Positions 1 to 38,668 of a stretch of DNA of 46,092 nt are shown piece by piece. Below the pieces are notes generated by a model. It saw nothing but the letters and a program-made list of their open reading frames with translations. It did no database searches and was not told where the DNA came from. The number at the start of each line of letters is the position of its first letter. Position 1 is the first letter of the stretch. A program made the translations under genes and the position numbers. The stretch is from Candidatus Omnitrophota bacterium (lineage in GTDB: Bacteria > Omnitrophota > Gorgyraeia > Zapsychrales > JBDRMG01), in the NCBI GenBank assembly GCA_043812495.1, contig JBDRMG010000006.1, positions 1 to 46,092 of the forward strand, read 5' to 3'.

Positions 1-250
1 TTATGGATGCCGACGATGAGTCGGCAGAACATAAGTGCATGACCGATAAATGACGGCTTGTGTTACGGAGAGAAACGCCCGCCTTTTTCTTAATATTTTC
101 GCGAGGTCTCGTCAATTCGATTTTATCGAATTGACGGAACGTAACACAATTGCCGGAATTTACCTCGAGCGAATGATAATGAGCGAGAGGCCCCGCCATT
201 GATTCAGTGGCGGATGGGGGACCAAGCAAAGGCAATTATAATATTTCAAC
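1..250 (-). repeat. Modular palindromic intergenic element, copy G (truncated by window edge; carries two hairpin-2 units)
   Basis: Reverse complement reads GTTGAAATATTATAATTGCCTTTGCTTGGTCCCCC-ATCCGCCACTGAATCAATGGCGGGG-CCTCTCGCTCATTATCATTCGCTCGAGG-TAAATTCCGGC..GCCGTCATT..CGGTCATGCACTTATG..CATAA; matches the other copies. Confidence 0.9.
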
Positions 251-312
251 CAGAAACGTAAACGATTTTATCATTTTGCATCAAAAAGAAAAAATTTAGC
301 AAGGAGAAAATC

Positions 313-753
313 ATGAGTAAGCGAAAAATTATTTTTGTTGATAAGCAGGTGCAGGGTTCGTACATGCTAATGACGGGGCTCTCGGTCTTTTTCACGGGGC
401 TGTGCGTTGGGGTAACGACTTATTGCTTAATGTTCAACTCGCTAGCAGAGCAGATGGGGACACTGAATCTCGCCAAATTTGATTTCCAGATTGTCACAGA
501 GTCCGATATTCCCCGTTTTATCGCTGTATTGGCGGCTATCATTGGCCTGAGCATCTTGACGAGCCTATTTTTTCTGTTTTATACGCATCGGATTGTCGGT
601 CCCATCAAAAGAATGCAAGCGGCCTTCGAGACAGCCGGGCGTGGCGATTTCTCCGTTCGTTTAAGATTGCGCCAAAAGGATTTACTGGTCCCTTTGGCCG
701 AAAGCTTTAATAAGATGGCTGAGCAGTTACAGGACAAATGCATATCCAAATAA
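313..753 (+). CDS. Two-TM membrane protein with C-terminal HAMP domain
   Basis: SD AAGGAG; two hydrophobic segments, then HRIVGPIKRMQAAFETAGRGDFSVRLRLRQKDLLVPLAESFNKM (HAMP). Confidence 0.8.
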   Translation: MSKRKIIFVDKQVQGSYMLMTGLSVFFTGLCVGVTTYCLMFNSLAEQMGTLNLAKFDFQIVTESDIPRFIAVLAAIIGLSILTSLFFLFYTHRIVGPIKRMQAAFETAGRGDFSVRLRLRQKDLLVPLAESFNKMAEQLQDKCISK

Positions 754-761
754 AGACATCC

Positions 762-1187
762 ATGAAACACTTGATCACTCAGAATAAAAAAGGTTTTACT
801 ATCATAGAGTTATTGGTGGTGATGGCCATCATCGTGATTTTAGCCGCTATTCTTTTTCCGGCGGTGATGAGAGCCAGGCTGAATACCAACGAATTTCTGG
901 CCGTCAAAGGACTTAGAAGTCTCTGCCAGGCCCTGGAGCTCTACAGAATTGATAATGGGGATTATCCTGATACAGCCGAAGATTTGATTAACAGTCATCC
1001 ACCCTATGTTCAAAATCCAGCCATTGTTCAGGCAGCGACAGCCGGCGAAATTCCTTATGTCGGTTATTATTTTGACTATACAAAAACAGAACCGATGAAA
1101 TATACCTATACAGCCTCCCCTAAAACCATCGGAGCGACAGGAACAAAAACGTTTACTGTCGACGAAGACGGCGAAATTGAAGAATAA
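762..1187 (+). CDS. Type IV pilin / type II secretion pseudopilin (prepilin N-terminal cleavage-methylation motif)
   Basis: KKG|FTIIELLVVMAIIVILAAILFP class III signal peptide; LELYRIDNGDYP. Confidence 0.85.
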   Translation: MKHLITQNKKGFTIIELLVVMAIIVILAAILFPAVMRARLNTNEFLAVKGLRSLCQALELYRIDNGDYPDTAEDLINSHPPYVQNPAIVQAATAGEIPYVGYYFDYTKTEPMKYTYTASPKTIGATGTKTFTVDEDGEIEE

Positions 1188-1247
1188 AGCACTTCCTCGA
1201 AAATTGAAGCCTTTCGGCGTTTTTTCATTTGACCCTCAAGAATATCA

Positions 1248-1276
1248 TTGCACTTATTTTGGAAGGATTATATAAT
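1248..1276 (+). promoter_or_regulatory. Sigma70-type promoter for the SOR-ferredoxin genes
   Basis: TTGCAC-17 nt-TATAAT upstream of the 1339 start. Confidence 0.6.
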
Positions 1277-1338
1277 ATTCCTCTAAAATTTGTATTTCAA
1301 GATTAATATAAAAGATTGATATAAGAAGGGAGCGTTCT

Positions 1339-1733
1339 GTGGCAGACTTCAAAGAATTATTTCAAAGCGCGGATTGGAAGACCGAAAAACATGTTCCGGT
1401 GATTGAGGCGCCGGAGTCCGTGAAAAAAGGTGAATTTTTTAAGGTGACCGCAGCGGTCGGCAAGGACGTCGCTCATCCCAATAAAACAGAACATCATATT
1501 GCCTGGATTGATCTGTATTTCCATCCTAAGGAAGAAAAATTTCCTTATCAAATCGGAAGGCGGAATTTTCAGCTCACGGGGCTTCCGCGCAGGGACCCGA
1601 TACAAGCTCGGTGTATACCCATCACGAAGCGACACTGAGTTTTAAAACGGATAAAGACGGTGTTATTTATGCCGCGAGCTTCTGCAATATCCATGGGTTA
1701 TGGCAAGGCTCGAAGGAAGTCAAGGTCCTTTAA
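1339..1733 (+). CDS. Superoxide reductase (neelaredoxin / class II SORL), apparent 1-nt frameshift near 1558-1560
   Basis: EKHVP and HP..EHHIAW in one frame; from 1560 the shifted frame gives AEFSAHG...SFCNIHGLWQGSKEVKVL* (CNIHGLW iron-ligand motif). Confidence 0.85.
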
Positions 1734-1765
1734 CTAGCAACTTTAAGACATAAGGAGGTCAAATC

Positions 1766-1954
1766 ATGAGAGCAAAAGTTGATCCAGAGGCTTGCACGGG
1801 ATGTGAGCTTTGCGTACAGACATGTCCGGAGGTTTTCAAGATGGAAGGCGATAAGGCCATTGTTTCAGTTGATCAGGTTCCTGAATCCGCCCAATCTTCA
1901 TGTCAACAATCAGCGGATGATTGCCCGGTAACTGCGATTCTCATTGAAGCATAA
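1766..1954 (+). CDS. Monocluster ferredoxin
   Basis: CTGCELC..CPEVF...DCPVTAI; strong SD AAGGAGG. Confidence 0.9.
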   Translation: MRAKVDPEACTGCELCVQTCPEVFKMEGDKAIVSVDQVPESAQSSCQQSADDCPVTAILIEA

Positions 1955-1976
1955 TTGGAATTATTGATAGAGGAAA

Positions 1977-2014
1977 AAGGAGTGTTCTTTTTATAAAAAA
2001 GACACTCCTTATTC
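1977..2014 (+). terminator. Intrinsic terminator after ferredoxin
   Basis: AAGGAGTGT..ACACTCCTT stem followed by ATTCTTTT. Confidence 0.65.
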
Positions 2015-2152
2015 TTTTAATGAGCCCGCCAACAATTCGTTGGCGAGGCGAATTAACCTCGAGCGAATGATAATGAGCGAGAGGTCGCCCAACAAAATTG
2101 CTTAAGATTTTAATGGGCGGGGACCAAGCAAAACCAATTATAATATTTCAAC
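2014..2152 (-). repeat. Modular palindromic intergenic element, copy H
   Basis: rc: GTTGAAATATTATAATTGGTTTTGCTTGGTCCCCGCCC..GGGCGA-CCTCTCGCTCATTATCATTCGCTCGAGG-TTAATTCGCCTCGCCAACGAATTGTTGGCGGGCTCATTAAAAG. Confidence 0.9.
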
Positions 2153-2192
2153 CATAATATTCTAACTATATTCTTTTTAGAAGAATAATTTG

Positions 2193-3329
2193 ATGGAAAA
2201 CAAAATTGTCATTATTGGCGGTGGATTTGCCGGATTGAACGCTGTACGGGCGCTGCGCCGTTTAGATCAGCACCTGCCCATTACGGTCATTGACCACAGG
2301 GAGCACGCTCATTTTCTGCCTTTATTGCCGGATGTCATCGGCCGGGGCATCAAACCGGAAACACTTTTAATGAGCCACCGGTATCTGGCTGAAAAACTAA
2401 AGGTTCAGTTCATTTACGACAAAGTCACATCGATTGATTTTGAGAAGAAGAGTGCTTCCTTGGGCGCCGGTACGGTTTCTTATGATTACTTGATGGTCAC
2501 CAGCGGAGCGGAAACAAATTTTTACTCTCAAAAATCCGTTGAGCCATATTGTTGTTGCCTGGAGACGGTTCAAGATGCCCGGAAGATAAAAGAGGCAGCA
2601 CAAAAAGATGAAGTCGAAACCATTGTCATCGTCGGGGGCGGGTATACGGGAATCGAAATTGCCACCAACTTAAGGCGACTTTTACAACAAAAGCAACTGT
2701 TCAAAAGAATCGTGATTATTGAGAGAGCAAGCTCCATTCTCGGCCCTCTCCCTCAATGGATGAAAGATTATGCTAAAAGAAATTTACTGCAGCTCAATAT
2801 CCAGGTTAAGCTCGAGACCACACTTCAGGACGCGAAAGAGGGAAAAATTACACTTTCGAATCATGAAATCATTGACCGGTCCTTATTGATTTGGGTCGCC
2901 GGTGTCAAGACAGGTTCATTCATCCAAAACCTGAATGCCGAGAAGAATCCCCAAGGACGTATCAAAGTCGACAAATATCTGAGATGCAGCGAACATTGTT
3001 TTGTCGCCGGTGATGCCGCTTGCGTTTCTCATTTGGACTCTCCTGTAAGAATGGCGGTGCAATTTTCCATCATGGAAGGAATTGTTGCGGCGAACAATAT
3101 CTTCCGGTCAATCAAGAAAAAGCCGCTTAGAGAATATCAACCCGTTGATCTCGGGTATGTGATTCCGATGGCCAATAACCGTTCCTGCGGCTGGGTCCTT
3201 GGCTTGAATTTGAGGGGGTTGCTGCCGACCATTTTGCATTATGTAATGTGCTTTTATCGATTATATGGCTTAAGGAATAGATTTTATCTGGTGAAAGATT
3301 TAGTCCGAGGGCTCGCGAAAAAACCTTAA
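2193..3329 (+). CDS. ndh: FAD-dependent pyridine nucleotide oxidoreductase, type II NADH dehydrogenase-like
   Basis: Two Rossmann motifs (IIGGGFAG, IVGGGYTGIE), LIWVAGV, FVAGDAA. Confidence 0.8.
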   Translation: MENKIVIIGGGFAGLNAVRALRRLDQHLPITVIDHREHAHFLPLLPDVIGRGIKPETLLMSHRYLAEKLKVQFIYDKVTSIDFEKKSASLGAGTVSYDYLMVTSGAETNFYSQKSVEPYCCCLETVQDARKIKEAAQKDEVETIVIVGGGYTGIEIATNLRRLLQQKQLFKRIVIIERASSILGPLPQWMKDYAKRNLLQLNIQVKLETTLQDAKEGKITLSNHEIIDRSLLIWVAGVKTGSFIQNLNAEKNPQGRIKVDKYLRCSEHCFVAGDAACVSHLDSPVRMAVQFSIMEGIVAANNIFRSIKKKPLREYQPVDLGYVIPMANNRSCGWVLGLNLRGLLPTILHYVMCFYRLYGLRNRFYLVKDLVRGLAKKP

Positions 3330-3332
3330 CAG

Positions 3333-3470
3333 CCCTTCACGAAATTCGTTCAGGGCTGTTGATTACAACGATTTTGCAATGATTACACAGATTGAACCGT
3401 CGGGAACTAATCTGTGTAATCTGTTTCTTAATCAGTGTAATCAAGGGCGAAACGATTTTTGTGAAGCCCT
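3333..3470. mobile_element. MITE-like long imperfect palindrome flanked by a 12-bp direct repeat
   Basis: AAACCTTAACAG at 3321-3332 and 3471-3482; near-terminal IR CTTCACGAAATTCGTT / AACGATTTTTGTGAAG; internal GATTACACAGATT / AATCTGTGTAATC. Confidence 0.6.
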
Positions 3471-3495
3471 AAACCTTAACAGAAGGAGGGGAGCT

Positions 3496-3907
3496 ATGCA
3501 GAAAGAACAACTATTGGATACCGGGATTTTTATTCTGCGCATCGGCTTGGGCACCATATTTTTGGCCCATGGTTTACAAAAAGTATTTGGGGTTTTCGGC
3601 GGACCCGGGATAGAGGGCTTTACCGGGATGATGAAAAACCTTGGATTCTCTTTTCCCGTATTTTGGGCCTGGACAGCGGCCTTGGGTGAATTACTGGGGG
3701 GGAGCTTTGTTAATTTTGGGCGTACTCCCGAGAATCAGCGCAGGCACTATTGCCATAATCGCGCTTGTGGCGATCATCAAAGTCCATAGGAAAAACGGGT
3801 TTTTTTTAGATAAGGGCGGCATCGAGTATGTCTTTTTGATCTTATCGACAGCCATTTTTATCATTCTTAATGGAGCCGGAAGGCTTTCTTTGTTCAACAA
3901 GTACTAA
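3496..3907 (+). CDS. DoxX family membrane protein, apparent +1 frameshift in G7 run (3696-3702)
   Basis: LRIGLGTIFLAHGLQKVFG..ELLGG continues in the next frame as ALLILG..GGIEY..GAGRLSL; SD GGAGG. Confidence 0.85.
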
Positions 3908-3918
3908 GAAAATAAAGA

Positions 3919-3946
3919 TTGTCAAAAGACCAGAAAGTTCTATAAT
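3919..3946 (+). promoter_or_regulatory. Sigma70-type promoter
   Basis: TTGTCA-16 nt-TATAAT. Confidence 0.5.
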
Positions 3947-4007
3947 ATAACTTCCCAGACAGAAAAGTCAGATGGGTGCAAGAAAAATTGTGAAAAAGGA
4001 GGGACAA

Positions 4008-4202
4008 ATGCCACGACGAATCATCAAAAGACAAAGCTCCAAAGACAAGGGCACAGGCCTTTCCGCAAGCCAAGAACGACTCCTCAGTGAGATTCAAAAG
4101 AGAGCGTATTGGCTCTATGAAGGAAGAGGCTGCGTAAGCGGCAATGATTGGGCCGATTGGTTTACAGCGGAAAAACAAGTCAGAGAAGGAATGAAAGTCT
4201 AA
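4008..4202 (+). CDS. DUF2934-family small protein
   Basis: EIQKRAYWLYEGRG...DWADWFTAEKQV signature; SD AAGGAGG. Confidence 0.8.
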   Translation: MPRRIIKRQSSKDKGTGLSASQERLLSEIQKRAYWLYEGRGCVSGNDWADWFTAEKQVREGMKV

Positions 4203-4270
4203 GGACGATCGAAAGAGAAAGTCGCTTTTTTTTCTTAGAAATCTTCCATCTCTTTCTTATTCTTGATTTT

Positions 4271-4498
4271 ATGAGACGCATCTTATTGATTTTTCTTTGC
4301 TTGCAGCTAGTGGGCTGTGCTTCGTTTCCGGGCGGTAAAAAAATAAGTGATCTTGAATCTTCTGTTGCCGAGAAGGATCAAACGATTAAGACCCTTCAAG
4401 AATCTCTTCAGAAAAAAGAAGAACAACTGGCCCAGAAAGATTCCGAGATAACGAAATTACGCAAACAGCTCGAGACATTTGGTGTTTTTAACAAGTAA
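4271..4498 (+). CDS. Small coiled-coil lipoprotein
   Basis: Lipobox LVGC after MRRILLIFL; heptad-rich C-terminus. Confidence 0.65.
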   Translation: MRRILLIFLCLQLVGCASFPGGKKISDLESSVAEKDQTIKTLQESLQKKEEQLAQKDSEITKLRKQLETFGVFNK

Positions 4499-4587
4499 TT
4501 GCACAATCCGCTTTTTATTTTTCTCAAGCTTAGATTCTCGCGAGTCCATCAATTTTGGTTCTTTCTTGTTAAGGGTGAACGAAAGAA

Positions 4588-4681
4588 CCTGATTCCAAAG
4601 ATTATTGAGTGATTAAACAGATTTGATTTCTGGCGATATAAATAAATCGGTGTAATCAATTTTATAATCATTGTCATCAGG
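4588..4681. repeat. Imperfect palindrome related to the 3333-3470 element (GATTAMACAGATT / AATCGGTGTAATC type)
   Basis: CCTGAT..GATTAAACAGATTT..AAATCGGTGTAATC..ATCAGG. Confidence 0.5.
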
Positions 4682-4814
4682 GCCATTCAATAATTCCAAC
4701 TATCCAGCTGAATAAGAATGGCCCTCAATTTTTCCAGAAAAAGAGTCATTTCCCTTAAGATTGCTCATTCGGAGATCAGCGAAAGGGCAAACTGTTAACT
4801 AACCATAAAAAAAG

Positions 4815-4948
4815 GAAATATCATAATTGTATTTGCTTCATCCCCCACCCGCCACTGAATCAATGGCGGGCGGTGGTCAATTCGGCCATGCACTTATGTT
4901 CTGCCCCGCCTTTGGCGCGGCATCCATAAGTACAGGCCTCATTGAAAG
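4815..4948 (+). repeat. Modular palindromic intergenic element, copy A (abuts the nadA RBS)
   Basis: GAAATATCATAATTGTATTTGCTTCATCCCCC-ACCCGCCACTGAATCAATGGCGGG..TCAATTCGGCCATGCACTTATG-[GCCCCGCCTTTGGCGCGGC]-CATAAGTACAGGCCTCATTGAAAG. Confidence 0.9.
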
Positions 4949-4957
4949 GAGTCCAGC

Positions 4958-5875
4958 TTGAATATTGCCGATCAAATCCGGTCGCTGAAAAAGAAACGAA
5001 ACGCCGTCATTCTGGTCCACAATTATCAACTTCCGGAAATTCAAGATATTGCGGATTTTATCGGCGACTCTTTAGGCTTGAGCATCAAGGCCTCCAAGAC
5101 GCAAGCTGATGTGATTGTTTTTTGCGGCGTCTATTTTATGGCCGAAACCGCTAAAATCGTTTCTCCCCAGAAAACTGTCCTTATTCCCGATAAACTGGCC
5201 GGCTGCCCCATGGCCGATATGATCAGCGCGGAAAGCCTACGGGAGCTGAAAAACAAACATCCTCAAGCCAAGGTCCTGTGTTATGTTAATACTTCGGCGG
5301 AAGTTAAAGCCGAAGCGGATATGTGCTGTACGTCCGCTAATGCCGTGACCATGCTGCAGGAAGGTTTTCAGCCGCAGGATGAGATCATTTTTGTTCCCGA
5401 TAAATATTTGGCTAATTATGCCGCCAGTCAGACCGGACGAAAGCTTATTACCTGGAACGGGTACTGTCCTTCTCACGTCAAAATTCTTCCTCAAGACATC
5501 CAGAAGCAGAAACAACTCCATCCGCAGGCCAAGGTTTTGGTTCACCCCGAGTGTACGCCGGACGTGATTCGCTTAGCCGATGTGGTTTGCTCCACCGAAG
5601 GTATTTTTCATTATGTCCAAAAGTCGCAGGACGAAGAATTTATTATCGGAACAGAAACGGACATGCTCTACCGGCTTCGCGTCAATAATCCCGGCAAGAA
5701 ATTTTATCCGGCGTCAGAGCTGGCCATTTGCCCCAATATGAAACGCATCACCCTGGATAAGGTCCACTCGGCCCTTGAGAGGATACAGTTTGAAGTAACG
5801 GTTGAGCCCTCTATTCTCGTGAAAGCACAAAAGAGTATTAAGCGCATGATGGAATGTAAAGCCGCCGTTGCTTAA
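4958..5875 (+). CDS. nadA: Quinolinate synthase
   Basis: AVILVHNYQ, GDSL, FCGVYFMAET, GCPMA, CYVNT, VHPEC, CPNMK. Confidence 0.97.
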   Translation: MNIADQIRSLKKKRNAVILVHNYQLPEIQDIADFIGDSLGLSIKASKTQADVIVFCGVYFMAETAKIVSPQKTVLIPDKLAGCPMADMISAESLRELKNKHPQAKVLCYVNTSAEVKAEADMCCTSANAVTMLQEGFQPQDEIIFVPDKYLANYAASQTGRKLITWNGYCPSHVKILPQDIQKQKQLHPQAKVLVHPECTPDVIRLADVVCSTEGIFHYVQKSQDEEFIIGTETDMLYRLRVNNPGKKFYPASELAICPNMKRITLDKVHSALERIQFEVTVEPSILVKAQKSIKRMMECKAAVA

Positions 5876-5880
5876 AGTTA

Positions 5881-6063
5881 GTTGAAATATGATAATTGTA
5901 TTTGCTTAATCCCCAGCCCGCCACTGAATCAATGGCGGGCGGTGTCAATTCGGCCATGCACTTATGTTTCCGTCAATTCGATAAAATCGAATTGACGAGA
6001 CCTCGCAAAATTTAAAAAATTAGCGGACATTATCATTCCATAAGTGCAGGCCTCATTGAAAAG
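5881..6063 (+). repeat. Modular palindromic intergenic element, copy B
   Basis: GTTGAAATATGATAATTGTATTTGCTTAATCCCC..TCAATTCGGCCATGCACTTATG-[CGTCAATTCGATAAAATCGAATTGACG...]-CATAAGTGCAGGCCTCATTGAAAAG. Confidence 0.92.
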
Positions 6064-6078
6064 AATAAACAGGAGAAC

Positions 6079-7272
6079 ATGGTGACCAAAAGACAAATCT
6101 ATATGGATCACAATGCGACGGCCCCTCTTCATCCGGAAGTCAAGAAAGCGATTCATGAAGCGATGGAGATCTTCGGGAATCCTTCGAGTCTTCATGGATT
6201 TGGCCGTCTGGCCAAAAAGCGCGTGGAAGAGGGCCGGGAGAAAGTCGCTTCCTTTATCGGCGCCGAACCCGATGAAATCGTCTTTTCCGGCAGCGGTTCC
6301 GAAGCCAATAATACCATCTTATCGATGCTTGTGTGCGGTTCACATCAATGCCCTTACCAAGCTCAAGGTCCGATGGAAATTATCACGACCAAAATCGAAC
6401 ATCCCTGCATTCTGGAAACAGCCAAGTGCCTTCAGGACAGGGGCGTGAGCGTCTTGTTTGTCGGTGTTGACCGCCATGGAAAGATCAATATAGATCAATT
6501 GAAAGATTCCATTACACCCAGGACGCGGATTGTTTCTGTGATGATGGCCAATAATGAAATCGGCACCATTCAGGATATTAAGACGATCGCTCAAATCGTT
6601 CACGCTAAAGGGGTCTTGTTTCACACCGACGCGGTCCAGGCCGTGGGTAAAATTCCTGTTGATGTGCGTGATCTGAACGTGGATTTTCTGACGTTATCAG
6701 GGCACAAAATTTATGGCCCCAAAGGAATCGGAGCGCTCTATACGCGCAAAGGCATTCCCTTTTGTCCCCTAATCCGCGGCGGTCATCAGGAAAGAGGACG
6801 GCGCGCCGGAACGGAAAATACACTCGGCATTATTGGTTTAGGAAAGGCCATTGACATGCGCGCCAAAGAAATGCCATCTGAGGCCAAGCGGTTGCTCGAG
6901 CTCAAAACCATTCTCAAAAAAGGCATTGAAGAAAAGATACCCGATATTCAGTTTAATGGTCATCCCACAGACTCCCTTCCCAATACTATAAATGTTTCCT
7001 TTGAAGGGGCCGAAGGAGAGGCTATTCTTTTGTATCTCGATTTTGAAGGAATTGCGGTCTCCACAGGCTCGGCCTGCGCTTCGGGGTCGCTTGATCCGTC
7101 CCATGTCCTTTTGGCTACAGGCCTTGCGGCTGAACAAGCCCATGGTTCGGTGCGCGTGAGCTTAGGCCGCGACAATACAAAAGAAGATATTAACTATCTT
7201 TTGGAGGTCCTTCCTCGCGTTATTGATAAAATCAGAAATATGTCGACCGTCTATACAAAGAAAACATCATGA
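6079..7272 (+). CDS. nifS: Cysteine desulfurase (NifS/IscS family)
   Basis: YMDHNATAP, GNPSSLH, HTDAVQ, SGHKIYGPKG, STGSACASG. Confidence 0.95.
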   Translation: MVTKRQIYMDHNATAPLHPEVKKAIHEAMEIFGNPSSLHGFGRLAKKRVEEGREKVASFIGAEPDEIVFSGSGSEANNTILSMLVCGSHQCPYQAQGPMEIITTKIEHPCILETAKCLQDRGVSVLFVGVDRHGKINIDQLKDSITPRTRIVSVMMANNEIGTIQDIKTIAQIVHAKGVLFHTDAVQAVGKIPVDVRDLNVDFLTLSGHKIYGPKGIGALYTRKGIPFCPLIRGGHQERGRRAGTENTLGIIGLGKAIDMRAKEMPSEAKRLLELKTILKKGIEEKIPDIQFNGHPTDSLPNTINVSFEGAEGEAILLYLDFEGIAVSTGSACASGSLDPSHVLLATGLAAEQAHGSVRVSLGRDNTKEDINYLLEVLPRVIDKIRNMSTVYTKKTS

Positions 7273-7883
7273 GCGAACAATTCAATTGGGCTTATACGGA
7301 CAAAGTCAAAGACCATTTTATGAATCCCCGCAATGTCCTCAAGGATGAAGAGACCTTTCATGCGGATGGCGAAGGTGTTGTCGGCAATATCAAATGCGGG
7401 GACCAGATGATTTTTTACATCAAAGTCAACAAAGACAGGCAAACGATTACGGACTGCAAATGGAAGACGTATGGTTGTGCGAGCGCTATTGCAAGCACGT
7501 CCATTCTCTCGGAAATGGTCAAAGAAATGACGTTGGATGAAGCCTATCATCTTTCGCCCAAAGATATTGTTAAAGAGCTCGGGGCCTTGCCGGAACACAA
7601 AATTCATTGCTCGGTCTTGGGGGATAAAGCCTTGCGCGCGGCCATCAATGATTATTATCAGCGCAGCGGCATGGAGGACAAGATTAAGCAGGAGAAGGCG
7701 CATCTGGTGTGCCAATGTATGAACGTCACGGACCATGAGATAGAAAATGCTGTGCTGGAAGGGGCGCGGACGTACTATGAGCTCCAAGAGAGGACAAAAT
7801 TAGGCACGGTTTGCGGGCAATGCAAAGAAGAGGCCATTCGGCTTCTTTCGGAATATCAAAGGAAACATTTTGGAAGTTCTTAG
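7269..7883 (+). CDS. nifU: Fe-S scaffold NifU-like (IscU domain plus BFD-like [2Fe-2S] domain)
   Basis: HFMNPRN, CGD, YGCASAIAS, KIHCS; C-terminal CQC...GTVCGQC. Confidence 0.9.
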   Translation: MSEQFNWAYTDKVKDHFMNPRNVLKDEETFHADGEGVVGNIKCGDQMIFYIKVNKDRQTITDCKWKTYGCASAIASTSILSEMVKEMTLDEAYHLSPKDIVKELGALPEHKIHCSVLGDKALRAAINDYYQRSGMEDKIKQEKAHLVCQCMNVTDHEIENAVLEGARTYYELQERTKLGTVCGQCKEEAIRLLSEYQRKHFGSS

Positions 7884-7957
7884 TTTTGTAATAGAATAAA
7901 AAGGTCGATACAGAACAGGATGACCCTCTAGAGCCGACAGACGCATAGAGGGTTTTT
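7870..7957 (+). promoter_or_regulatory. Promoter plus short leader with terminator/RBS-sequestering hairpin (candidate attenuator)
   Basis: TTGGAA-16-TAGAAT; ACCCTCTA(7923-7930)/TAGAGGGT(7946-7953) followed by TTTT just before the transporter start. Confidence 0.45.
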
Positions 7958-7964
7958 GCCTCAA

Positions 7965-9347
7965 ATGAAGAAAAAATTTCTCGCTTTATTTATTCTTTCG
8001 TCTTCCTTGGGCTTGCTGGGAGCCTGGGCAGGGCTTTCGTCAACCCAAGCCCTGATTATCGCCATATTTTCTTTATCCATCCTGGGGACATTATTCTTCT
8101 GGGATTTCCGCCTCAGTTTTGTTTTTATCGGAAGCGGAATATTCCTGGTCTCCGGCATCGTGAATCTCGAGACATTTATTCGGTTTGCCTCTTTGGATGT
8201 TATTCTTTTTCTGATATCGATGATGATCATCGTGGGCATGATGAAAGAGGCCGGCTTTTTTATGTGGCTGATCACTGTTGTGCTGCGCGTCAGAAATCTC
8301 ACCGGCACTAAAATGTTCACCATTATGATGATTGCCTCGGCTGTGTTTTCGGGACTGATGGGTGAGGTGGCTTCGATTATTGTTTTGGTTACCGTGATTC
8401 TTAATATCTGCGATTTTCTTGAAGTGGATCCCACGCCCTTAATCATTTCATCCGTCTTAGCGACCAATATCGGATCGGCCTCAACCGTCTTAGGGAACCC
8501 CGTCGGTGTTCTCATCGCGGCCAGGGGGCACCTGACATTTGAGGATTTCATCACCCATGCCTTACCCTTGTCCACCGTTGTTTTATTGGTCACCATCGTT
8601 GTTTTGTGTTTTTGGTATAAGAATTATATCCGGGAGTTGACGCAAAAACTCAAAGAATATCAAGGCGATGCCAGTTTTCTTTACCTTATCTCTATTCCGC
8701 CGGATGCCAGGACAAAAATCAGCATGGTGATATTCGGCATCACGATATTTCTGATCTCTCTGCATAAGCGTCTGGAACTATTGCTCCGCCTCGAAGAAAA
8801 TACGCTGCTTATTACCATCCCTGTGATCTTTGCGGGGATTGTGATGTTGTATCGCCATGACAAGGCCAGGCATTATATCGAAAAAGAGGTTGAATGGCCT
8901 TCGTTGTTATTCTTCTTATTTTTGTTTGCGCAGGCCGGTGTTATTCAAGCCTCCGGTGTGGCCGACTTCTTTGCCCGTAAAATGATTGATATCGCCGGGC
9001 AGAACCCTAAGATGCTGACCGGGGCGATTTTATTTTCAAGCGGGTTTTTCTCAAGCGGTTTGGATAATGTTGTGGCTGTGGCTTCCTATGTTCCGCTCGT
9101 CAAAAGTCTCGCCGTGTTGCATTATAATCTTGCACCGGTGTGGTGGGCCCTTCTTTTCGGCGCTTGTTACGGCGGGAATATTACCATGATCGGGTCAACC
9201 GCAAATATCGTTGCCTTAGGACTTCTTGAGAAGGAGATGAACATCCGATTAGCCTTCTTGGCCTGGTTAAAGATCGGACTGATTATCGGCCTCTTAAGCA
9301 TGCTGATTGCCTACCTGGCCATTATTACGATCCCCATCTATTTCTAA
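7965..9347 (+). CDS. ArsB/NhaD/SLC13-type ion transporter (IT superfamily)
   Basis: Polytopic; ATNIGSASTVLGNP and GGNITMIGSTANIV hairpin motifs; LDNV. Confidence 0.85.
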   Translation: MKKKFLALFILSSSLGLLGAWAGLSSTQALIIAIFSLSILGTLFFWDFRLSFVFIGSGIFLVSGIVNLETFIRFASLDVILFLISMMIIVGMMKEAGFFMWLITVVLRVRNLTGTKMFTIMMIASAVFSGLMGEVASIIVLVTVILNICDFLEVDPTPLIISSVLATNIGSASTVLGNPVGVLIAARGHLTFEDFITHALPLSTVVLLVTIVVLCFWYKNYIRELTQKLKEYQGDASFLYLISIPPDARTKISMVIFGITIFLISLHKRLELLLRLEENTLLITIPVIFAGIVMLYRHDKARHYIEKEVEWPSLLFFLFLFAQAGVIQASGVADFFARKMIDIAGQNPKMLTGAILFSSGFFSSGLDNVVAVASYVPLVKSLAVLHYNLAPVWWALLFGACYGGNITMIGSTANIVALGLLEKEMNIRLAFLAWLKIGLIIGLLSMLIAYLAIITIPIYF

Positions 9348-9418
9348 CCCTTCGCGTAAGTATAAGGGTGATTCCCTCTTTCTCGTAAGGTTCACGTAAG
9401 GTAAGGTTCAAAATGTAC

Positions 9419-9447
9419 TTGATTGAATGAAGTGAAATATATATAAT
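9419..9447 (+). promoter_or_regulatory. Sigma70-type promoter for trxA
   Basis: TTGATT-17 nt-TATAAT. Confidence 0.6.
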
Positions 9448-9547
9448 ACCGTATCTTTCGGTTTATTAATATTAAGATTAATTTATGACAAAAGAGTGTT
9501 CACGTACACTTTTAATAATCTTCTCAGCAAAAAGGAGGATGCTTGCA

Positions 9548-9868
9548 ATGAGCTCAGTTCAACTTACGGTCAAGAATTTCGAACAAGAAGTTTTGAAGTC
9601 ATCGGTACCTGTTTTGGTTGATTTTTGGGCGGAATGGTGCGGCCCCTGTAAAATGGTGAGCCCGGTGATCGATGAGGTGGCCAAGGAATTTTCGGATCGA
9701 ATTAAAGTCGGCAAAGTCAATATTGACGAGGCGCAGGATTTAGCCATGCGCTATAGCGTGATGTCGATTCCGACTTTGATGTTCTTTAAAGACGGACAAC
9801 CTGTTGACCAAGTGATCGGCGCGGTCGGCAAAGATCAGTTGATCAGCAAGATTAATCAAAATTTGTAA
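9548..9868 (+). CDS. trxA: Thioredoxin
   Basis: [26 protein letters not shown]. Confidence 0.96.
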
Positions 9869-9909
9869 AAAGGACCCGTGTTTGTTGTTCCAATCGATGA
9901 ATCGTAGAT

Positions 9910-10048
9910 GTTGAAATATTATGATTGTATTTGTCTGGTCCCCGCCCACCAAAATTGTTAAACAATTTTTGGTAGACGGGTTAATTCGGCCAGCAACTTA
10001 CGTTAGCCGACAACGATCGGCATCCGTAAGTTGCGGCCTCATTAAAAG
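9910..10048 (+). repeat. Modular palindromic intergenic element, copy C (abuts the panD RBS)
   Basis: GTTGAAATATTATGATTGTATTTG..CCCCG..CGGGTTAATTCGGCCAGCAACTTACG-[GCCGACAACGATCGGC]-CGTAAGTTGCGGCCTCATTAAAAG. Confidence 0.9.
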
Positions 10049-10058
10049 GAGAAAAAAG

Positions 10059-10409
10059 ATGCTCTTAACATTTTGTCGCGCCAAAATCGCTCAGGCCAAG
10101 GTCACCGAAGCCGAGCTTTATTATGAAGGAAGCATCACCATTGATGAAGCCCTTCTTGAGGCCGTCGGCATTTCACCGGGTGAGAAAGTTGAAGTGCTCA
10201 ATATCAACAATGGGACGCGAACCGAGACTTACGCGATCGCGGGTAAGGTTAAATCCGGCGTGATTTGCCTCAACGGACCGGCCGCCCGCTTGGGTTGCGT
10301 TGGGGATCCGTTGATTATCTTAAGTTACGGACTGATCGAAGAAAAAGACATTAAAAAATACAAAACAAAAGTCGTTTATTGCGATGAAAATAACAGAATT
10401 AAAAGTTAG
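10059..10409 (+). CDS. panD: Aspartate 1-decarboxylase
   Basis: YEG|SITID self-cleavage site, NNGTRTETY, CLNGPAAR. Confidence 0.93.
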   Translation: MLLTFCRAKIAQAKVTEAELYYEGSITIDEALLEAVGISPGEKVEVLNINNGTRTETYAIAGKVKSGVICLNGPAARLGCVGDPLIILSYGLIEEKDIKKYKTKVVYCDENNRIKS

Positions 10410-10899
10410 GGTGTATGGCGATCCTTGCTTAAGAAAGAAATGTAAGCCGATTAAGAAAGTCGGTCCAGCCGAGCGCATGATCATTTCTTCAATGATTCAA
10501 GCCATGTATGATCATAAAGGCATCGGGTTGGCGGCGCCTCAGATTGGGATCAACGAACAGCTTTTTGTCGCCGATATCGGTGACGGTCCCTTTGCCGTCA
10601 TCAATCCGCGTATTTTCAAACAAAGAGGCGCGAATATCATGGAAGAAGGGTGCCTTTGCCTTCCGGGTATTTCCGTGAAGGTCCGACGTTCCAAGAAAAT
10701 TGTTGTTCAGTATATCGACGAACAAAACCAAAAGGTCGAAAAAGAGTGCGATGATCTCTTGGCCAAAGTTTTTCAGCATGAAACCGATCATCTGAAGGGC
10801 AAGATGATTATTGATCATGCCAGTTTGAGAGAAAAGATAAAATACCGGAAGCAATTAGCTCAATTGCGAAAACTGAGTCGAACCAACAAAGACACATAA
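10384..10899 (+). CDS. def: Peptide deformylase
   Basis: GIGLAAPQIG, EGCLC, QHETDHL. Confidence 0.96.
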   Translation: MKITELKVRVYGDPCLRKKCKPIKKVGPAERMIISSMIQAMYDHKGIGLAAPQIGINEQLFVADIGDGPFAVINPRIFKQRGANIMEEGCLCLPGISVKVRRSKKIVVQYIDEQNQKVEKECDDLLAKVFQHETDHLKGKMIIDHASLREKIKYRKQLAQLRKLSRTNKDT

Positions 10900-10915
10900 A
10901 ACAAAAGGTTTCCCT

Positions 10916-22750: not shown

Positions 22751-22860
22751 CTTTTTAATGAGCCCGCCAATGATTCATTGGCGAGGCGAATTAACCCCCG
22801 CACCAATTATGAAATAATTGGTGCGGGGGGACTAAGCAAATGCAGTTATAATATTTCAAC
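22751..22860 (-). repeat. Modular palindromic intergenic element, copy I (minimal form)
   Basis: rc: GTTGAAATATTATAACTGCATTTGCTTAGT-CCCCCGCACCAATTAT..ATAATTGGTGCGGGGG-TTAATTCGCCTCGCCAATGAATCATTGGCGGGCTCATTAAAAAG. Confidence 0.9.
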
Positions 22861-23612: not shown

Positions 23613-23744
23613 CCCAGCACCTTTTTCTCATTCAAATTGTTTGGAGTCGAAAGTCTTTAAAAATATTTGAATAAGTAAAAGGTGCTGGGTCAATTCGCCC
23701 CGCTTCTTGCCCCGCAAAATGCGGGGCAGCGGGGTTCATTGAAG
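23613..23744 (+). repeat. Modular palindromic intergenic element, copy F (lacks the AT-rich 5' leader)
   Basis: CCCAGCACCTTTT..AAAAGGTGCTGGG-TCAATTCG-CCCCGCT..[GCCCCGCAAAATGCGGGGC]AGCGGGG-TTCATTGAAG. Confidence 0.8.
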
Positions 23745-25398: not shown

Positions 25399-25536
25399 GA
25401 AATGTTATAATTGCATTTGCTTAATCCCCAGCCCGCCACTGAATCAATGGCGGGCGGCGTCAATTCGGCCATATGACTTATGTCGTCCGCCACTGAATCA
25501 ATGGCGGACTCCAGAAGTCATGGCCTCATTGAAAAG
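25399..25536 (+). repeat. Modular palindromic intergenic element, copy D (same mini-hairpin in both slots)
   Basis: GAAATGTTATAATTGCATTTGCTTAATCCCCA-GCCCGCCACTGAATCAATGGCGGGC..TCAATTCGGCCATATGACTTATG-[GTCCGCCACTGAATCAATGGCGGAC]-CAGAAGTCATGGCCTCATTGAAAAG. Confidence 0.92.
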
Positions 25537-30680: not shown

Positions 30681-30751
30681 TCTTTTTCGCCAAAGGCTTT
30701 TTGATCGTTAAGAATGAATATCGGATGTTTCCTTAGGCAAAAAGGAGTTTT

Positions 30752-31575: not shown

Positions 31576-31634
31576 CTTAAGACAATCATAGGTCGTGAAG
31601 AGGCATTATCCCTCACATCAAAATCTCCTATCCA

Positions 31635-32807: not shown

Positions 32808-32882
32808 AACTTGCAAATCACTATTTATTTGGTAAGATGGGTTAGACTATAGGACAACCGGACTTGCGAAGGAGTCATAACG

Positions 32883-33359: not shown

Positions 33360-33378
33360 GAAAAGAAAGGTGAGTCTG

Positions 33379-33852: not shown

Positions 33853-33903
33853 AACATATAAATCGGCCGAGAAAATTAACATATTTTAGAGGAAGAAATC
33901 ACA

Positions 33904-35043: not shown

Positions 35044-35055
35044 CAAATACGAAAA

Positions 35056-35811: not shown

Positions 35812-35813
35812 AT

Positions 35814-36734
35814 ATGCCCTTAAAGAAAATTGTTTTTGTTGTCGGGCCCACAGCCGTCGGGAAATCCCAGGTTGCCTTTCATTTAGCCCAGAAACTTAAT
35901 GGCGAAATCATTTCCTGCGATTCCATGCAGGTCTATAAAGAGATTTCTATCGCCAGTAATAAAACTCTAAAGACTTTGCGCAAGGCCGTTAGACATCATT
36001 TGATCGACATTGTATCTATCGCGAAAAGTTATGATGCGGCTGCTTTTCGGCAAAAAGCGCTTAAAACCATTGACGCCATTCATAAAAAAGGAAAGATTCC
36101 CATTGTTGCTGGTGGGACGGGTTTATACATGAGTATTCTTTTGGACGGAATATTCAAAGGCGGACAAAAATCGGTAAGATTGCGTCAACAACTTGAAAGG
36201 GAAGCAAAGCAAAAGGGAGAAGAGGCGCTTTATCAAAAGCTTCAAAAAATGGATCTGGAAAGCGCGGCCAAAATCCATCCCCATAATACCCGAAAAATTA
36301 TCCGCGCCCTCGAGGTGGTCTTAAAGTCCAAGAGACCTATTTCGAAGTTACAAAAGGAACGAAAAGGTCTTTGGGGACAATACGCGATCGATTGCTTCGC
36401 GCTCAGCATTCCCCGAGAGAGATTGTATGAAAGGATCAATCAGCGTGTTGATCAAATGTTTGCACATGGAATTGTTGATGAAATCAAGTGCTTGGAGCGC
36501 AAAAAGTGGAGTCCGACAGCCAAAGGCATCATCGGATTCAAGGAAATCAAAGGCTATCTGGACGGTATTTATGATCTTGAGCGGGCCAAATATCTGATGA
36601 AGTTAAATACGCGGCATTATGCCAAAAGACAGATGACATGGTTTCGCAAGGACAAGCGTCTATCGTGGATCGCGATGGAAGATAATGATACCCCGGTGAG
36701 AGTGGCAGAGAAAATTGTTCAATATTTGAAATAA
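35814..36734 (+). CDS. miaA: tRNA dimethylallyltransferase
   Basis: GPTAVGKS, DSMQVY, HHLID, GGTGLY, YAKRQMTWFR. Confidence 0.96.
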   Translation: MPLKKIVFVVGPTAVGKSQVAFHLAQKLNGEIISCDSMQVYKEISIASNKTLKTLRKAVRHHLIDIVSIAKSYDAAAFRQKALKTIDAIHKKGKIPIVAGGTGLYMSILLDGIFKGGQKSVRLRQQLEREAKQKGEEALYQKLQKMDLESAAKIHPHNTRKIIRALEVVLKSKRPISKLQKERKGLWGQYAIDCFALSIPRERLYERINQRVDQMFAHGIVDEIKCLERKKWSPTAKGIIGFKEIKGYLDGIYDLERAKYLMKLNTRHYAKRQMTWFRKDKRLSWIAMEDNDTPVRVAEKIVQYLK

Positions 36735-36910
36735 AATTTGTTTTACATCGCAGGGTATTTACCCCGCCAAAAAACGGCGGGGTTAATGGTTCGACGTTGC
36801 TCACCATCCTGAGCAAGGCCGCCATAAGGGCGGCCGCGTCGAAGGATTCCGGCAGTAATTTATGTTCTCCCGACGTTCCGTCCGGATCCATAAATTGCGC
36901 CGTCATTAAA
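36726..36910 (+). repeat. Modular palindromic intergenic element, divergent copy K with nested insertion (about 36788-36846)
   Basis: TTGAAATA..ACCCCGCCAAAAAACGGCGGGGTTAAT-[GGTTCGAC..GCTCACCATCCTGAGC..GTCGAAGGA]-TTCCGGCAGTAATTTATG..CATAAATTGCGCCGTCATTAAA-ATG. Confidence 0.75.
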
Positions 36911-38155
36911 ATGGCTGAAAAAGTTCTCGTCGTTACAATTGATTTTGGCAAAAGAAACGAATGGCCGTCTGTGGATATCGCCGATGAGCTCAAAGAGCTT
37001 GTGCTTTCTTGTGGCGGTGATGTCATCAATTCCGTTATCCATAAGTGCAGTAAACCCACTGCCGCCTTCCTGATCCATGAAGGCAAAGTGCGCGAGATTG
37101 CGGATTTATGCGCTCAACATGAGATTGACACCGTGATTTTTAGTCATGATCTCAAGGGAAGCCAACAGAGAAATATCGAGAAAATTCTTGGCGTCAAGAC
37201 TATTGACCGCACACAGCTGATTCTCGATATCTTTGCCCGTCGCGCCAAAAGCCAGGAGGGACGCATGCAGGTCGAATTGGCTCAGTTGGAATATCTGCGG
37301 CCGCGCTTGGTCGGCCATGGCATTGAACTTTCACGACTCGGTGGCGGCATCGGCACCCTGGGCCCCGGAGAGACGAAATTGGAAGTTGACCGGCGTCGGA
37401 TCGACAGCCGCATCGACAGATTAAGAAAAGACCTCAAAGAGATCGTTCAAAGCCGCGCAACAAAACGCAAGAAAAGAAAACAGGAACAAATACCCACGGT
37501 GACATTAGTCGGTTATACGAACGCGGGAAAATCAACACTCCTCAATACCCTTACGGAATCCCAACAGATAACGCACGACGGTCTTTTTACGACGCTGGAT
37601 CCTCTGACACGGCAATTGATGATGCCGAATCATCAGAAGCTCGTTCTCTCGGACACGGTCGGATTTATGTATGAGCTGCCGCATCATTTAATTGAATCGT
37701 TTAAGGCCACCTTGGAAGAAGTGATGGATGCTGATTTATTGCTCCATGTGCTTGATATCAGCAATCCGAAATTCAGGAATTTGCAGGAAGCTGTTATGAA
37801 GGTTTTGCACGAATTAGGCGCGCAGGATAAGCCGATCGTTACCGTTTTGAACAAAATTGACCGGTTGGATGATCTCTCCTGGCTTGACGGTATCATGAGA
37901 AATTTTGATCACGCTGTTTATATCTCAGCCCTCAAGGGCGAGCGCATCGATATCCTCCTTGAGAAAATCAATCAAATCCTTGTTCCCACCACAACCCAAA
38001 TTGACGTGCGTATCCCTTTAAATCGCATGGACCTTGTCCACCTCGTCCACAATGAGGGTGACGTCAAAACTATTGAATATCTCGCCGATGCCGTTCATGT
38101 CATCGCCGTTGTTCCTTTCAAGATCGCCAATAAGGTCGAAGCTCGCAATAAATAG
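36911..38155 (+). CDS. hflX: Ribosome-splitting GTPase HflX
   Basis: DRTQLILDIFA, QVELAQL, GPGETKLE, GYTNAGKST, DTVGF, NKID. Confidence 0.97.
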   Translation: MAEKVLVVTIDFGKRNEWPSVDIADELKELVLSCGGDVINSVIHKCSKPTAAFLIHEGKVREIADLCAQHEIDTVIFSHDLKGSQQRNIEKILGVKTIDRTQLILDIFARRAKSQEGRMQVELAQLEYLRPRLVGHGIELSRLGGGIGTLGPGETKLEVDRRRIDSRIDRLRKDLKEIVQSRATKRKKRKQEQIPTVTLVGYTNAGKSTLLNTLTESQQITHDGLFTTLDPLTRQLMMPNHQKLVLSDTVGFMYELPHHLIESFKATLEEVMDADLLLHVLDISNPKFRNLQEAVMKVLHELGAQDKPIVTVLNKIDRLDDLSWLDGIMRNFDHAVYISALKGERIDILLEKINQILVPTTTQIDVRIPLNRMDLVHLVHNEGDVKTIEYLADAVHVIAVVPFKIANKVEARNK

Positions 38156-38222
38156 TATTAAAATGAATATTCATACTCAGCGAAAGCGCTTTCCTGAATA
38201 TCAACATTTTTTAATTTGTCCC

Positions 38223-38257
38223 TTGAAAATTGCAAAATAGTATTCCATACTTATAAA
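38223..38257 (+). promoter_or_regulatory. Candidate promoter for the riboswitch leader
   Basis: TTGAAA-17-CATACT or TTGCAA-16-TATAAA. Confidence 0.4.
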
Positions 38258-38283
38258 GGTTGTAAAACAAGAAAACGTTTTGA

Positions 38284-38456
38284 ACGATAAAGGCAAACCC
38301 ATCGCAAGGTGGGGACCCCGCCTACGCTAAAGTGCTTTTGCCTTTAGCTTCGGCGGGCTCTGCGAAGCTCAAACATGAAAATTTTTGAGCGAAGCAGAGG
38401 CAAAGCTAAAGGACCCAATAGGTTATAAGAGATTTAGGGCAGCCTGGCCACCGAAG
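38284..38456 (+). ncRNA. c-di-GMP-I (GEMM) riboswitch aptamer interrupted by an 83-nt two-hairpin insertion (38317-38399)
   Basis: AAGGCAAACCCATC-GCAA-GGTGGGGAC ^ GCAAAGCTAAAGGACCC..GGGCAGCCTGGCCACCGAAG; removing 38317-38399 restores the canonical GGGACGCAAAGC junction. Confidence 0.8.
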
Positions 38457-38491
38457 CGGAACGATTTTTTATTAATTGTTTTGATGTGTCA

Positions 38492-38529
38492 GGCCTATTT
38501 CTTTATTAAGGAATAGGCCGCATTGTTTA
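38492..38529 (+). terminator. Possible expression-platform terminator
   Basis: GGCCTATTTCTT/AAGGAATAGGCC stem with a weak U tract. Confidence 0.45.
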
Positions 38530-38668
38530 TTGAAATATTATATTTGAATTTGCTTTGTCCCCGCCCGCTAATCTTGTGTAACCATTTTGATGGGCGGGGT
38601 TAATTCGGTCATGCACTTATGTTTAGCCGACAACGATCGGCATCCATAAGTGCAGACCTCATTTAAAG
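38530..38668 (+). repeat. Modular palindromic intergenic element, copy E
   Basis: TTGAAATATTATATTTGAATTTGCTTTGT-CCCCGCCC..GGGCGGGG-TTAATTCGGTCATGCACTTATG-[GCCGACAACGATCGGC]-CATAAGTGCAGACCTCATTTAAAG. Confidence 0.9.

Follow-up and report, generated by a model that had tools for sequence, protein, structure and literature searches.

Short intergenic hairpin repeats of an Omnitrophota genome as probable gene-less members of a phylum-wide element that carries a GIY-YIG nuclease gene in its complete form

We analysed a 46,092-nt stretch of DNA from a Candidatus Omnitrophota bacterium (GenBank assembly GCA_043812495.1, contig JBDRMG010000006.1, positions 1 to 46,092; hereafter the window), in which a first-pass annotation had described 11 copies of an intergenic element with a fixed scaffold of hairpins. 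All 11 copies were read again in the sequence and are real, and they keep the same order of parts, that is, an AT-rich leader, a first hairpin set between CCC and GGG (hairpin 1, H1, filling slot 1), a TYAATTC linker, a second hairpin (hairpin 2, H2, filling slot 2) and a TCATTRA tail. We consider it probable that these copies are gene-less members of a hairpin element distributed across the phylum, the complete form of which contains within H1 a gene for a GIY-YIG nuclease predicted to mobilise the family in trans. The conserved core of the element is H2, bounded by TYAATTCG and CTCATTRA; that the nuclease is what mobilises it is a further step, which we infer.

Hairpin 2 is the conserved core of the element

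The variable bases of linker and tail change together. TCAATTC accompanies TCATTGA in 31 copies and TTAATTC accompanies TCATTAA in 18, while the combination of T in the linker with G in the tail occurs 3 times and that of C with A never. Since the linker Y covaries in this way with the tail R, linker and tail form the base of H2. In an alignment of 58 H2 units (3 from the window and 55 from other genomes, the genome G025 supplying two), 93.3% of the cells are paired as against 79.4% in shuffles, none of 500 of which reached the observed value, and slid-alignment controls are 28-39% paired. Compensatory changes altered both sides in 12 of 19 pairs. Near-invariant positions comprise the unpaired TC/TC beside the base, the ends T-AATTCG and CTCATT-A, and a TTA/TAA in the middle of the stem. 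Mispairs counted on the alignment are 22 G.T versus 8 A.C on the sense strand; folding energies contradict this count, as the antisense RNA folds better in 67 of the 72 copies of the window's genome that are complete from leader to tail, an advantage owed partly to the TC/TC loop being read as tandem GA.

The search pattern TYAATTCG-N20-50-CTCATTRA revealed H2 in 32 of 40 genomes of the order (the controls stayed close to zero) and in 88 of 200 genomes sampled across the phylum, 55 of which contain at least two matches. Copy number rises in bursts in some genomes (76, 41, 35 and 27 copies). Three of these bursts, in G099, G185 and G203 of the phylum sample (76, 35 and 27 copies, respectively), are independent, and their H2 units combine quite different inner stems with identical TYAATTCG and CTCATTRA ends.

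Copies are inserted DNA, often at the edge of a ribosome-binding site

The copies are inserted DNA. The first-pass annotation had taken them for a non-autonomous mobile or structured element and proposed a search for empty sites at nadA-nifS and trxA-panD, and both loci supplied them. The trxA-panD pair is syntenic in all four relatives examined, with spacers of 41, 15, 14 and 3 nt compared with 190 nt in the window, and the nadA-nifS spacer measures 15 nt in a genome of the same family compared with 203 nt in the window. Within the genus g24, both loci tested contain the element in G025 and lack it in the congener G031, with the junction exactly between CTCATTG(A) and AATAAA; the empty site keeps the AATAAA. 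Moreover, an H2-type unit interrupts a tRNA gene in the window's genome and ends right after TCATTAA. This interruption and the G025/G031 junction together place the 3' end of the element at the tail and assign the following bases to the flank. At the interrupted tRNA gene (contig C36, about 3050-3230), a 19-nt piece of the tRNA (TCTATCCACCTGAGCTAC..) is repeated on both sides of the unit.

The element usually sits between a stop codon and the ribosome-binding site of the next gene. On a crude map of open reading frames (ORFs), copies between co-directional genes are in sense orientation in 50 cases versus antisense in 26, and 29 of 95 copies point away from the next gene. A Shine-Dalgarno (SD)-like core and a start codon directly follow the tail in 28 of 72 copies, as compared with 1 of 72 in a control that looks outward from the leader, and in 23 of these 28 the core is offset by 0-3 nt from TCATTRA. 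This short offset, maintained despite a free spacer of at least 14 nt on the leader side in 16 of 27 SD-adjacent copies, indicates that the element keeps to the 5' edge of the ribosome-binding site and is not just squeezed into a short gap. In relatives, SD and start codon come after the tail in 23 of 58 copies (control, 2 of 58). G025 is an exception, with ATAAA and not an SD after the tail in 15 of 20 copies, and the flank beside the tail accordingly reads A-A-R-G-A in the window's genome and ATAAA in G025. We read the SD as native flank because the ribosome-binding site of panD resembles that of the same-family relative.

No transposase was found inside the window copies, the leader and tail ends are unrelated to each other, and no target duplication is visible, as the first-pass annotation had already noted. 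A classical miniature inverted-repeat transposable element (MITE) derived from a DDE transposon was rejected as a candidate, given the unrelated leader and tail ends and the lack of a target duplication.

A full-length form carries a nuclease gene in hairpin 1

The search for genes beside the copies that had been suggested earlier identified a GIY-YIG nuclease gene, and not a RAYT gene, as physically tied to the scaffold. Five genomes from at least four families contain this full-length form, at six loci in all: contig C5 of the window's genome (G000, between dapF and dapA), C18 of G001 (decayed), C62 of G006, C111 of G004 and, twice, C13 of G010. Each locus consists of an inverted H2, H1 arms around a GIY-YIG ORF, a T, TYAATTCG-H2-CTCATTRA and AGGAG-ATG, and the embedded genes encode proteins of 77-95 aa. 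At the C5 locus, the H1 arms CCCCCACACCAATT and AATTGGTGTGGGGG enclose an 84-aa GIY-YIG ORF with the inverted H2 to its left, and the right side reads T-TTAATTCG-H2-CTCATTAA-AGGAGG-ATG. The same architecture is found with a decayed nuclease gene in G001, which belongs to the same family as the window's genome. The arms around the gene are CCCTTGACATTTTGCC in G006, and CCCAGCACTAATTTT in G004 and at both G010 loci.

Identity between the embedded proteins is 63% within CCCAGCACTAATTTT arms and 56% within CCCCCAC(AC)CAATT arms, as opposed to 41-42% between arm types; judged by these sequence comparisons, the H1 arms go with the protein lineage. All three arm types recur without a gene as slot-1 hairpins in the window's genome. 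The CCCAGCACTAATTTT arms are gene-less in window copy 31432, with related CCCAGCAC arms in copy 23613, and CCCCCACACCAATT is part of the second commonest slot-1 type of that genome. The embedded nucleases match Pfam GIY-YIG at E about 1e-16; their closest solved relatives by sequence are the UPF0213 proteins 1zg2 and 1ywl, and none of the NCBIfam models passes its cut-off for them. Overall, the window's genome yields 16 Pfam GIY-YIG matches, most of them tRNA-linked.

On contigs C16, C43, C58 and C66 of the window's genome, the space between H1 arms CCCCCACACCAATTTGAC..GTCAAATTGGTGTGGGGG is taken up not by a nuclease gene but by ~70 nt of conserved non-coding sequence. The copies of relatives often have an inverted H2 in the place of the leader (12 of 58 copies, by reading); a pattern search for inverted H2 to the left of these copies caught 2 of 58. 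Gene-carrying elements bounded by H2 arms were not found in the window's genome, where only neighbouring independent copies were paired up.

Copies in the window and across its genome

The window copies and the parts of one typical copy are given here with their coordinates and strands.

1..250, minus strand: composite copy cut by the contig start, with leader, H1 (CCGCCACTGAATCAATGGCGG), an extra CCTCTCGCTC..GAGG hairpin, TAAATTC linker, H2 in which a CGTCAATTCGAT.. module is nested, and the beginning of another H2
2014..2152, minus strand: copy with leader, H1, an extra CCTCTCGCTC..GAGG hairpin, TTAATTC linker, short H2 and TCATTAA tail
4815..4948, plus strand: typical copy directly 5' of nadA, with AAGGAG and the start codon immediately after the tail
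4815..4838, plus strand: leader of this copy, AT-rich, containing a TATCAT/TATAAT -10-like hexamer
4842..4876, plus strand: its H1 (slot 1), CCCCC..GG around CCGCCACTGAATCAATGGCGG
4877..4883, plus strand: its linker TCAATTC, in which TCAAT pairs with ATTGA of the tail and the linker Y covaries with the tail R
4884..4938, plus strand: its H2 (slot 2), GGCC-ATGCACTTATG .. CATAAGTACA-GGCC with an inner GCCCCGCCTTTGGCGCGGC hairpin
4939..4945, plus strand: its tail TCATTGA, the 3' end of the element, followed by AAG that runs into the ribosome-binding site
5881..6063, plus strand: copy between nadA and nifS with a nested 70-nt module in H2; site empty in a same-family relative
9910..10048, plus strand: copy between trxA and panD, its tail abutting AAGGAG-N8-ATG; site empty in four of four relatives
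22751..22860, minus strand: antisense copy between two co-directional genes, with a short H2
23613..23744, plus strand: leaderless copy with a long H1 of CCCAGCAC..GTGCTGGG arms, TCAATTC, H2, TTCATTGA, AGGAGG and ATG
25399..25536, plus strand: copy with the CCGCCACTGAATCAATGGCGG hairpin both in slot 1 and in the H2 loop
31432..31575, minus strand: antisense copy whose tail shares bases with the stop codon of the gene upstream, with slot-1 arms CCCAGCACTAATTTT
36726..36910, plus strand: divergent copy whose linker is split (TTAAT, then TTC) by a foreign hairpin GGTTCGACG..CGTCGAAGGA
38530..38668, plus strand: complete copy, away from any gene start
38701..38729, strand not assigned: lone CCGCCACTGAACCAATGGCGG hairpin outside any scaffold

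The leader reads (GTT/AAG)GAAATATTATAATTGYATTTGCTT, the tail is followed by AAG, and the leader is present in 9 of the 11 window copies at up to 4 mismatches. On a rough gene map, the copies occupy 11 of the 22 window gaps that are at least 60 nt long. The short H2 of copies 2014 and 22751 is closed by GCC..GGC instead of GGCC..GGCC, and the composite copy at 1..250 has a near-identical counterpart elsewhere in the same genome (contig C66:53457).

Some gene starts in the window run into copies. The longest-ORF starts of panD (9921) and hflX (36797) extend into element copies, and the real starts of both genes lie downstream, that of panD at 10059 after AAGGAG. The TTG called as the start of hflX falls within copy 36726..36910 and is probably incorrect. 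In the same copy, the TYAAT and TC of the linker are separated by a different insert, which starts GGTTCGAC and forms a 60-nt hairpin in the window (36770-36850); at the ends of contigs C8 and C43 this insert is the beginning of a longer repeated sequence. The window also holds repeats of other kinds: a 152-nt direct repeat, 99% identical, at 42864-43015 and 45941-46092 in neighbouring genes for dockerin/peptidase C25 proteins, and three 147-nt FG-GAP-type repeats at 41443-41774.

In the whole genome (1.94 Mb in 66 contigs), the 21-nt leader has 65 matches at up to 2 mismatches, compared with none for the reversed pattern, and is thus far commoner than chance would allow. Relaxation to 5 mismatches returns 95 matches, 86 of them with the linker and 72 complete to the tail, and this leader form predominates among the H2 units of the genome (72 of 108). 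Its 5' edge is marked by a sharp jump in information content at the G of GAAAT; two classes of sequence (GTT and AAG) stand just before it, and no conserved sequence was found upstream of them. Contig ends show only slight enrichment, with a module within 150 nt in 9 of 132 cases versus 82 of 2000 random stretches. Among odd forms, a single hairpin lies between two inverted leaders at C3:10024-10128, and at C56:3489-3530 the leader is joined straight to GAAAGGA-N9-ATG without hairpins.

Slot contents are exchanged between copies

The contents of the slots have been exchanged between copies. With module types assigned by k-mer clustering, the type of H1 is independent of the inner type of H2 (mutual information of 2.27 as against 2.23 in shuffles, 31% of which are as high) and nearly independent of the H2 stem type (5%), whereas stem type and inner content of H2 are linked to each other. 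As many as 67 distinct slot combinations occur among 72 copies. The same palindrome also occurs flipped within the same slot (8 versus 2 and 3 versus 4 in the two orientations), and the CCGCC..GGCGG palindrome is found at 121 loci, some of them in loops of other hairpin families.

These results bear out the reshuffling that the first-pass annotation had described, and its six statements on modules shared between copies hold true with A at 4815, B at 5881, C at 9910, D at 25399, E at 38530, F at 23613, G at 1-250, H at 2014 and J at 31432. Its description of the slot hairpins as unrelated does not stand, for at least three slot-1 types are the arms of nuclease genes elsewhere.

The leader and the promoter question

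The leader carries a conserved TATAAT, in which TAnnnT is best kept, and no conserved -35 or TG extension was found upstream of it, nor any conservation upstream of position -5. A sigma-70 scan passes 2 of the first 5 copies of the window (within 1-12000), in both cases by means of -35s supplied by the flank; clear promoters of this genome resemble TTGACA-17-TATACT and have both hexamers. Among public sequencing runs, positions 4000-11000 of the window turned up in no RNA run and in three groundwater DNA runs, one with 0.17 of the words and two with next to none. The leader was not found in the 40 relatives. Elsewhere, it had 2 matches among genome contigs and 27 among metagenome contigs, none with the scaffold behind, in searches from which the records of the window's own genome were possibly excluded; these 29 are chance matches. 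An origin of the leader as a decayed inverted H2 was considered and rejected, as its local alignment scored 5.84 versus 5.94 for shuffled leaders. Rfam returned no match at gathering score in the window and none at E up to 1 in 4780-6100, and in relatives 8 matches at E up to 1, none of them at half the gathering score and none credible.

Y1_Tnp genes are not associated with the scaffold

An HUH/RAYT-type enzyme acting in trans, put forward as a possibility by the first-pass annotation, is not supported. The window's genome has 7 Pfam Y1_Tnp matches, and none of the 6 genes examined lies between scaffold hairpins. Across 41 genomes, the number of Y1_Tnp matches is uncorrelated with that of H2 copies (rho 0.06), and G006 and G008, with 18 and 12 H2 copies, lack a Y1_Tnp match at 90% and 96% completeness, respectively.

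Proteins of ~330 aa with a Y1_Tnp domain are encoded at C4:1301-1585, C45:245-565 and C2:46135-46470, each flanked by its own short repeats (GGGGACGTTGAT.., GGGGTCAGGTCTCGAC); they seem to belong to another repeat system, RAYT-like and with no relation to the scaffold. At C64:1-700, an IS200-like tnpA (Pfam Y1_Tnp, E 1e-27) that contains an in-frame TAG has entered a scaffold linker right after TCAA, and has an end hairpin of its own (GGGGAATCCCCGCC..). A PATE derived from IS200/IS605 was likewise rejected as a candidate. The sole IS200-like tnpA has its own end hairpins and itself sits in a scaffold linker, and the copies lack a fixed tetra- or pentanucleotide insertion target, with A-A-R-G-A or ATAAA flanking the tail and GTT or AAG flanking the leader.

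Proposed mechanism and rival explanations

In the mechanism that we propose, the nuclease would recognise the hairpin arms cognate to it, probably in single-stranded or extruded form; recognition of hairpins in these states has been shown for Ssn enzymes (PMC11893778). It would then make a break that starts copying and is repaired from another, non-allelic copy, and the conserved leader, linker and tail may serve as repair anchors, so that the slot contents get replaced. Alternatively, slots could be swapped by nested insertion of small palindromes into loops. Gene-less copies would be moved in trans, and the lineage-specific AT-rich leader would represent a left-end module, with a weak outward -10 element as its possible contribution.

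Several results weigh against mobilisation by the nuclease. H2 copy number does track GIY-YIG counts, in contrast to Y1_Tnp counts, which speaks for the nuclease, but the correlation is weak (rho 0.35 over the 41 genomes) and related genomes are not independent. Only 1 of 15 small GIY-YIG genes of the window's genome lies in the scaffold, the others being tRNA-linked or free-standing, and in that genome the commonest slot-1 hairpin has no gene-carrying form. G025 bears 41 H2 copies and a single small GIY-YIG gene, which lies outside any H1, is free-standing and is shared with G031. The SRM motif published for Ssn repeats, HGTCWYN(0-2)YYVSBRHN(0-5)WNVSBRGN(0-2)RNCYNB (PMC11893778), is not enriched in the window's genome, with 7 matches as compared with 6-10 in five shuffled genomes and no overlap with the 95 scaffold copies. 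No empty site defines the 5' end, and a target-site duplication was not found, as the 3 nt before the leader (the GTT and AAG classes) are not repeated after the tail. Finally, the sense bias, the SD adjacency and the excess of G.T over A.C mispairs would fit a role at the RNA level for part of the element. A bolder formulation can be held only tentatively: that this is an undescribed, phylum-wide class of modular and mostly protein-free transposable element made of nothing but nested DNA hairpins, whose sole protein, an 80-aa GIY-YIG nuclease in a hairpin loop, acts as the transposase, with reading of cognate arms, precise integration within operons where a ribosome-binding site begins at its 5' edge, and evolution by swapping of cassettes between copies.

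In a rival explanation, the repeats would owe their spread to replication template switching, illegitimate recombination or gene conversion between copies and not to an enzyme of their own, and the mini GIY-YIG genes would be secondary invaders that home into loops and not mobilisers. Most copies and most slot-1 types of the window's genome lack a gene-carrying form, G025 reached its 41 copies without a nuclease inside H1, flipped palindromes are the expected product of template switching, and the other GIY-YIG genes of the window's genome lie in unrelated tRNA-end hairpins. Yeast mitochondrial GC clusters merge and shuffle with no known enzyme (PMC4478555). We nonetheless regard enzyme-free spread as unlikely. 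TYAATTCG, CTCATTRA and the unpaired TC/TC are invariant throughout the phylum while the stems covary freely, which indicates a conserved sequence-specific partner; furthermore, an identical three-part architecture surrounds the nuclease gene in at least four families, the arms follow the protein lineage, and the insertion point is precise.

The RNA-level features raise another explanation, in which the scaffold is mainly a cis-acting expression cassette that mobility has just spread, with a promoter in the leader and hairpins that, as a structured 5' untranslated region or intercistronic RNA, stabilise the transcript or tune translation. The conserved TATAAT with its well-kept TAnnnT, the sense orientation between co-directional genes, the tails abutting an SD (28 of 72 copies, and 23 of 58 in relatives) and the G.T excess on the sense strand of H2 would all be consistent with it, but the rest of the evidence makes it decidedly unlikely. 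The leader has no conserved -35 or TG extension, differs from the clear promoters of the genome, passes the sigma-70 scan in 2 of 5 copies only by flank-supplied -35s and is found in none of the 40 relatives although H2 is widespread; 29 of 95 copies are directed away from the gene that follows; G025 copies adjoin ATAAA in place of an SD; slot contents can be exchanged and occur in flipped form; a tRNA gene is interrupted by copies; and no Rfam family matches. Very improbable, in our judgement, is that these are REP/BIME- or PATE-like repeats moved on single-stranded hairpins by a Y1 HUH transposase (RAYT or IS200/IS605 TnpA). Hairpin-based repeats with neither terminal inverted repeats nor target duplications, seven Y1_Tnp matches in the genome, the tnpA inserted exactly in a linker after TCAA and the conserved flank beside one element end would suit such a transposase. 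Against it stand the Y1 genes themselves, none of those examined being flanked by scaffold hairpins, the ~330-aa ones carrying their own repeats and the IS200-like one having an in-frame stop and its own end hairpins, as well as the lack of correlation with H2 counts and the two H2-rich genomes without a Y1_Tnp match.

Implications and comparison with known systems

If mobilisation by the embedded nuclease is correct, a tiny GIY-YIG nuclease and its cognate hairpins would make up a self-spreading unit within operons across a candidate phylum of ultra-small bacteria, with the element filling spacers that are only 3-41 nt long in relatives. This would provide a mobile-element context for the recently described Ssn-type hairpin nucleases, natural nuclease/hairpin pairs of differing specificity that could serve as tools for single-stranded DNA, and repeats in which module exchange can be traced copy by copy. 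Annotation and assembly of Omnitrophota genomes are affected too, with gene-start calls misled (panD, hflX), tRNA genes interrupted and some contig ends lying in or near elements.

Searches of the literature on Omnitrophota repeats or mobile elements and on GIY-YIG proteins with hairpin or palindromic repeats returned no description of this family. In the main text of a 2026 Omnitrophota genome preprint, the terms MITE, palindrom-, hairpin, GIY and intergenic are all absent. The architecture, the insertion preference and the phylum-wide spread appear to be undescribed, in line with the first-pass annotation, which had recognised no known family.

REP/BIME mosaics and REPINs with RAYT transposases, known from Proteobacteria, are short intergenic palindromes arranged in mosaics with conserved linkers, and they are non-autonomous. 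The Omnitrophota element shares with them the palindrome mosaics and conserved linkers, the occurrence in both orientations, the non-autonomous nature and the absence of terminal repeats and target duplications. In contrast to them, it has no link to Y1/RAYT genes, its gene is that of a GIY-YIG nuclease within a hairpin, and it inserts at the 5' edge of ribosome-binding sites.

T4-like phages contain free-standing homing endonucleases of the GIY-YIG and HNH kinds (Seg and Mob). They resemble the Omnitrophota loci as small endonuclease genes between conserved genes with which they are co-transcribed, and they spread by break-induced copying, as is proposed here for the element. Unlike the element, the phage genes lack hairpin arms and have no hundreds of gene-less derivatives.

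Double-hairpin elements reportedly occur in the mitochondria of Allomyces, where Paquin et al. are said to have described them in 2000. Palindromic GC clusters of yeast mitochondria are the subject of Wu and Hao 2015 (PMC4478555). The likeness extends to mobile hairpins, to modules that merge and shuffle, to mutual insertion and to coexisting mobile endonuclease genes. The yeast and Allomyces elements differ in being organellar, in AT-rich genomes, and in lacking an embedded enzyme gene, a three-part scaffold and insertion at the SD edge.

Ssn nucleases with their NTS/SRM hairpin repeats (Chenal et al. 2025, PMC11893778) are a further system for comparison. They are single-domain GIY-YIG proteins of ~80-100 aa, and each has a gene with its own hairpin repeat on either side; tens to hundreds of copies of that repeat lie around genes, and different homologues have different cognate hairpins. 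The Omnitrophota nucleases resemble them in all these respects, and gene flanking of the Ssn type is seen in the full-length form, with the ORF between H1 arms and H2 copies outside (6 loci in 5 genomes). They differ in that the nuclease gene occupies one hairpin loop within a fixed unit of three hairpins, that the repeats are built of modules and nested in one another, and that the orthologous sites are empty in relatives.

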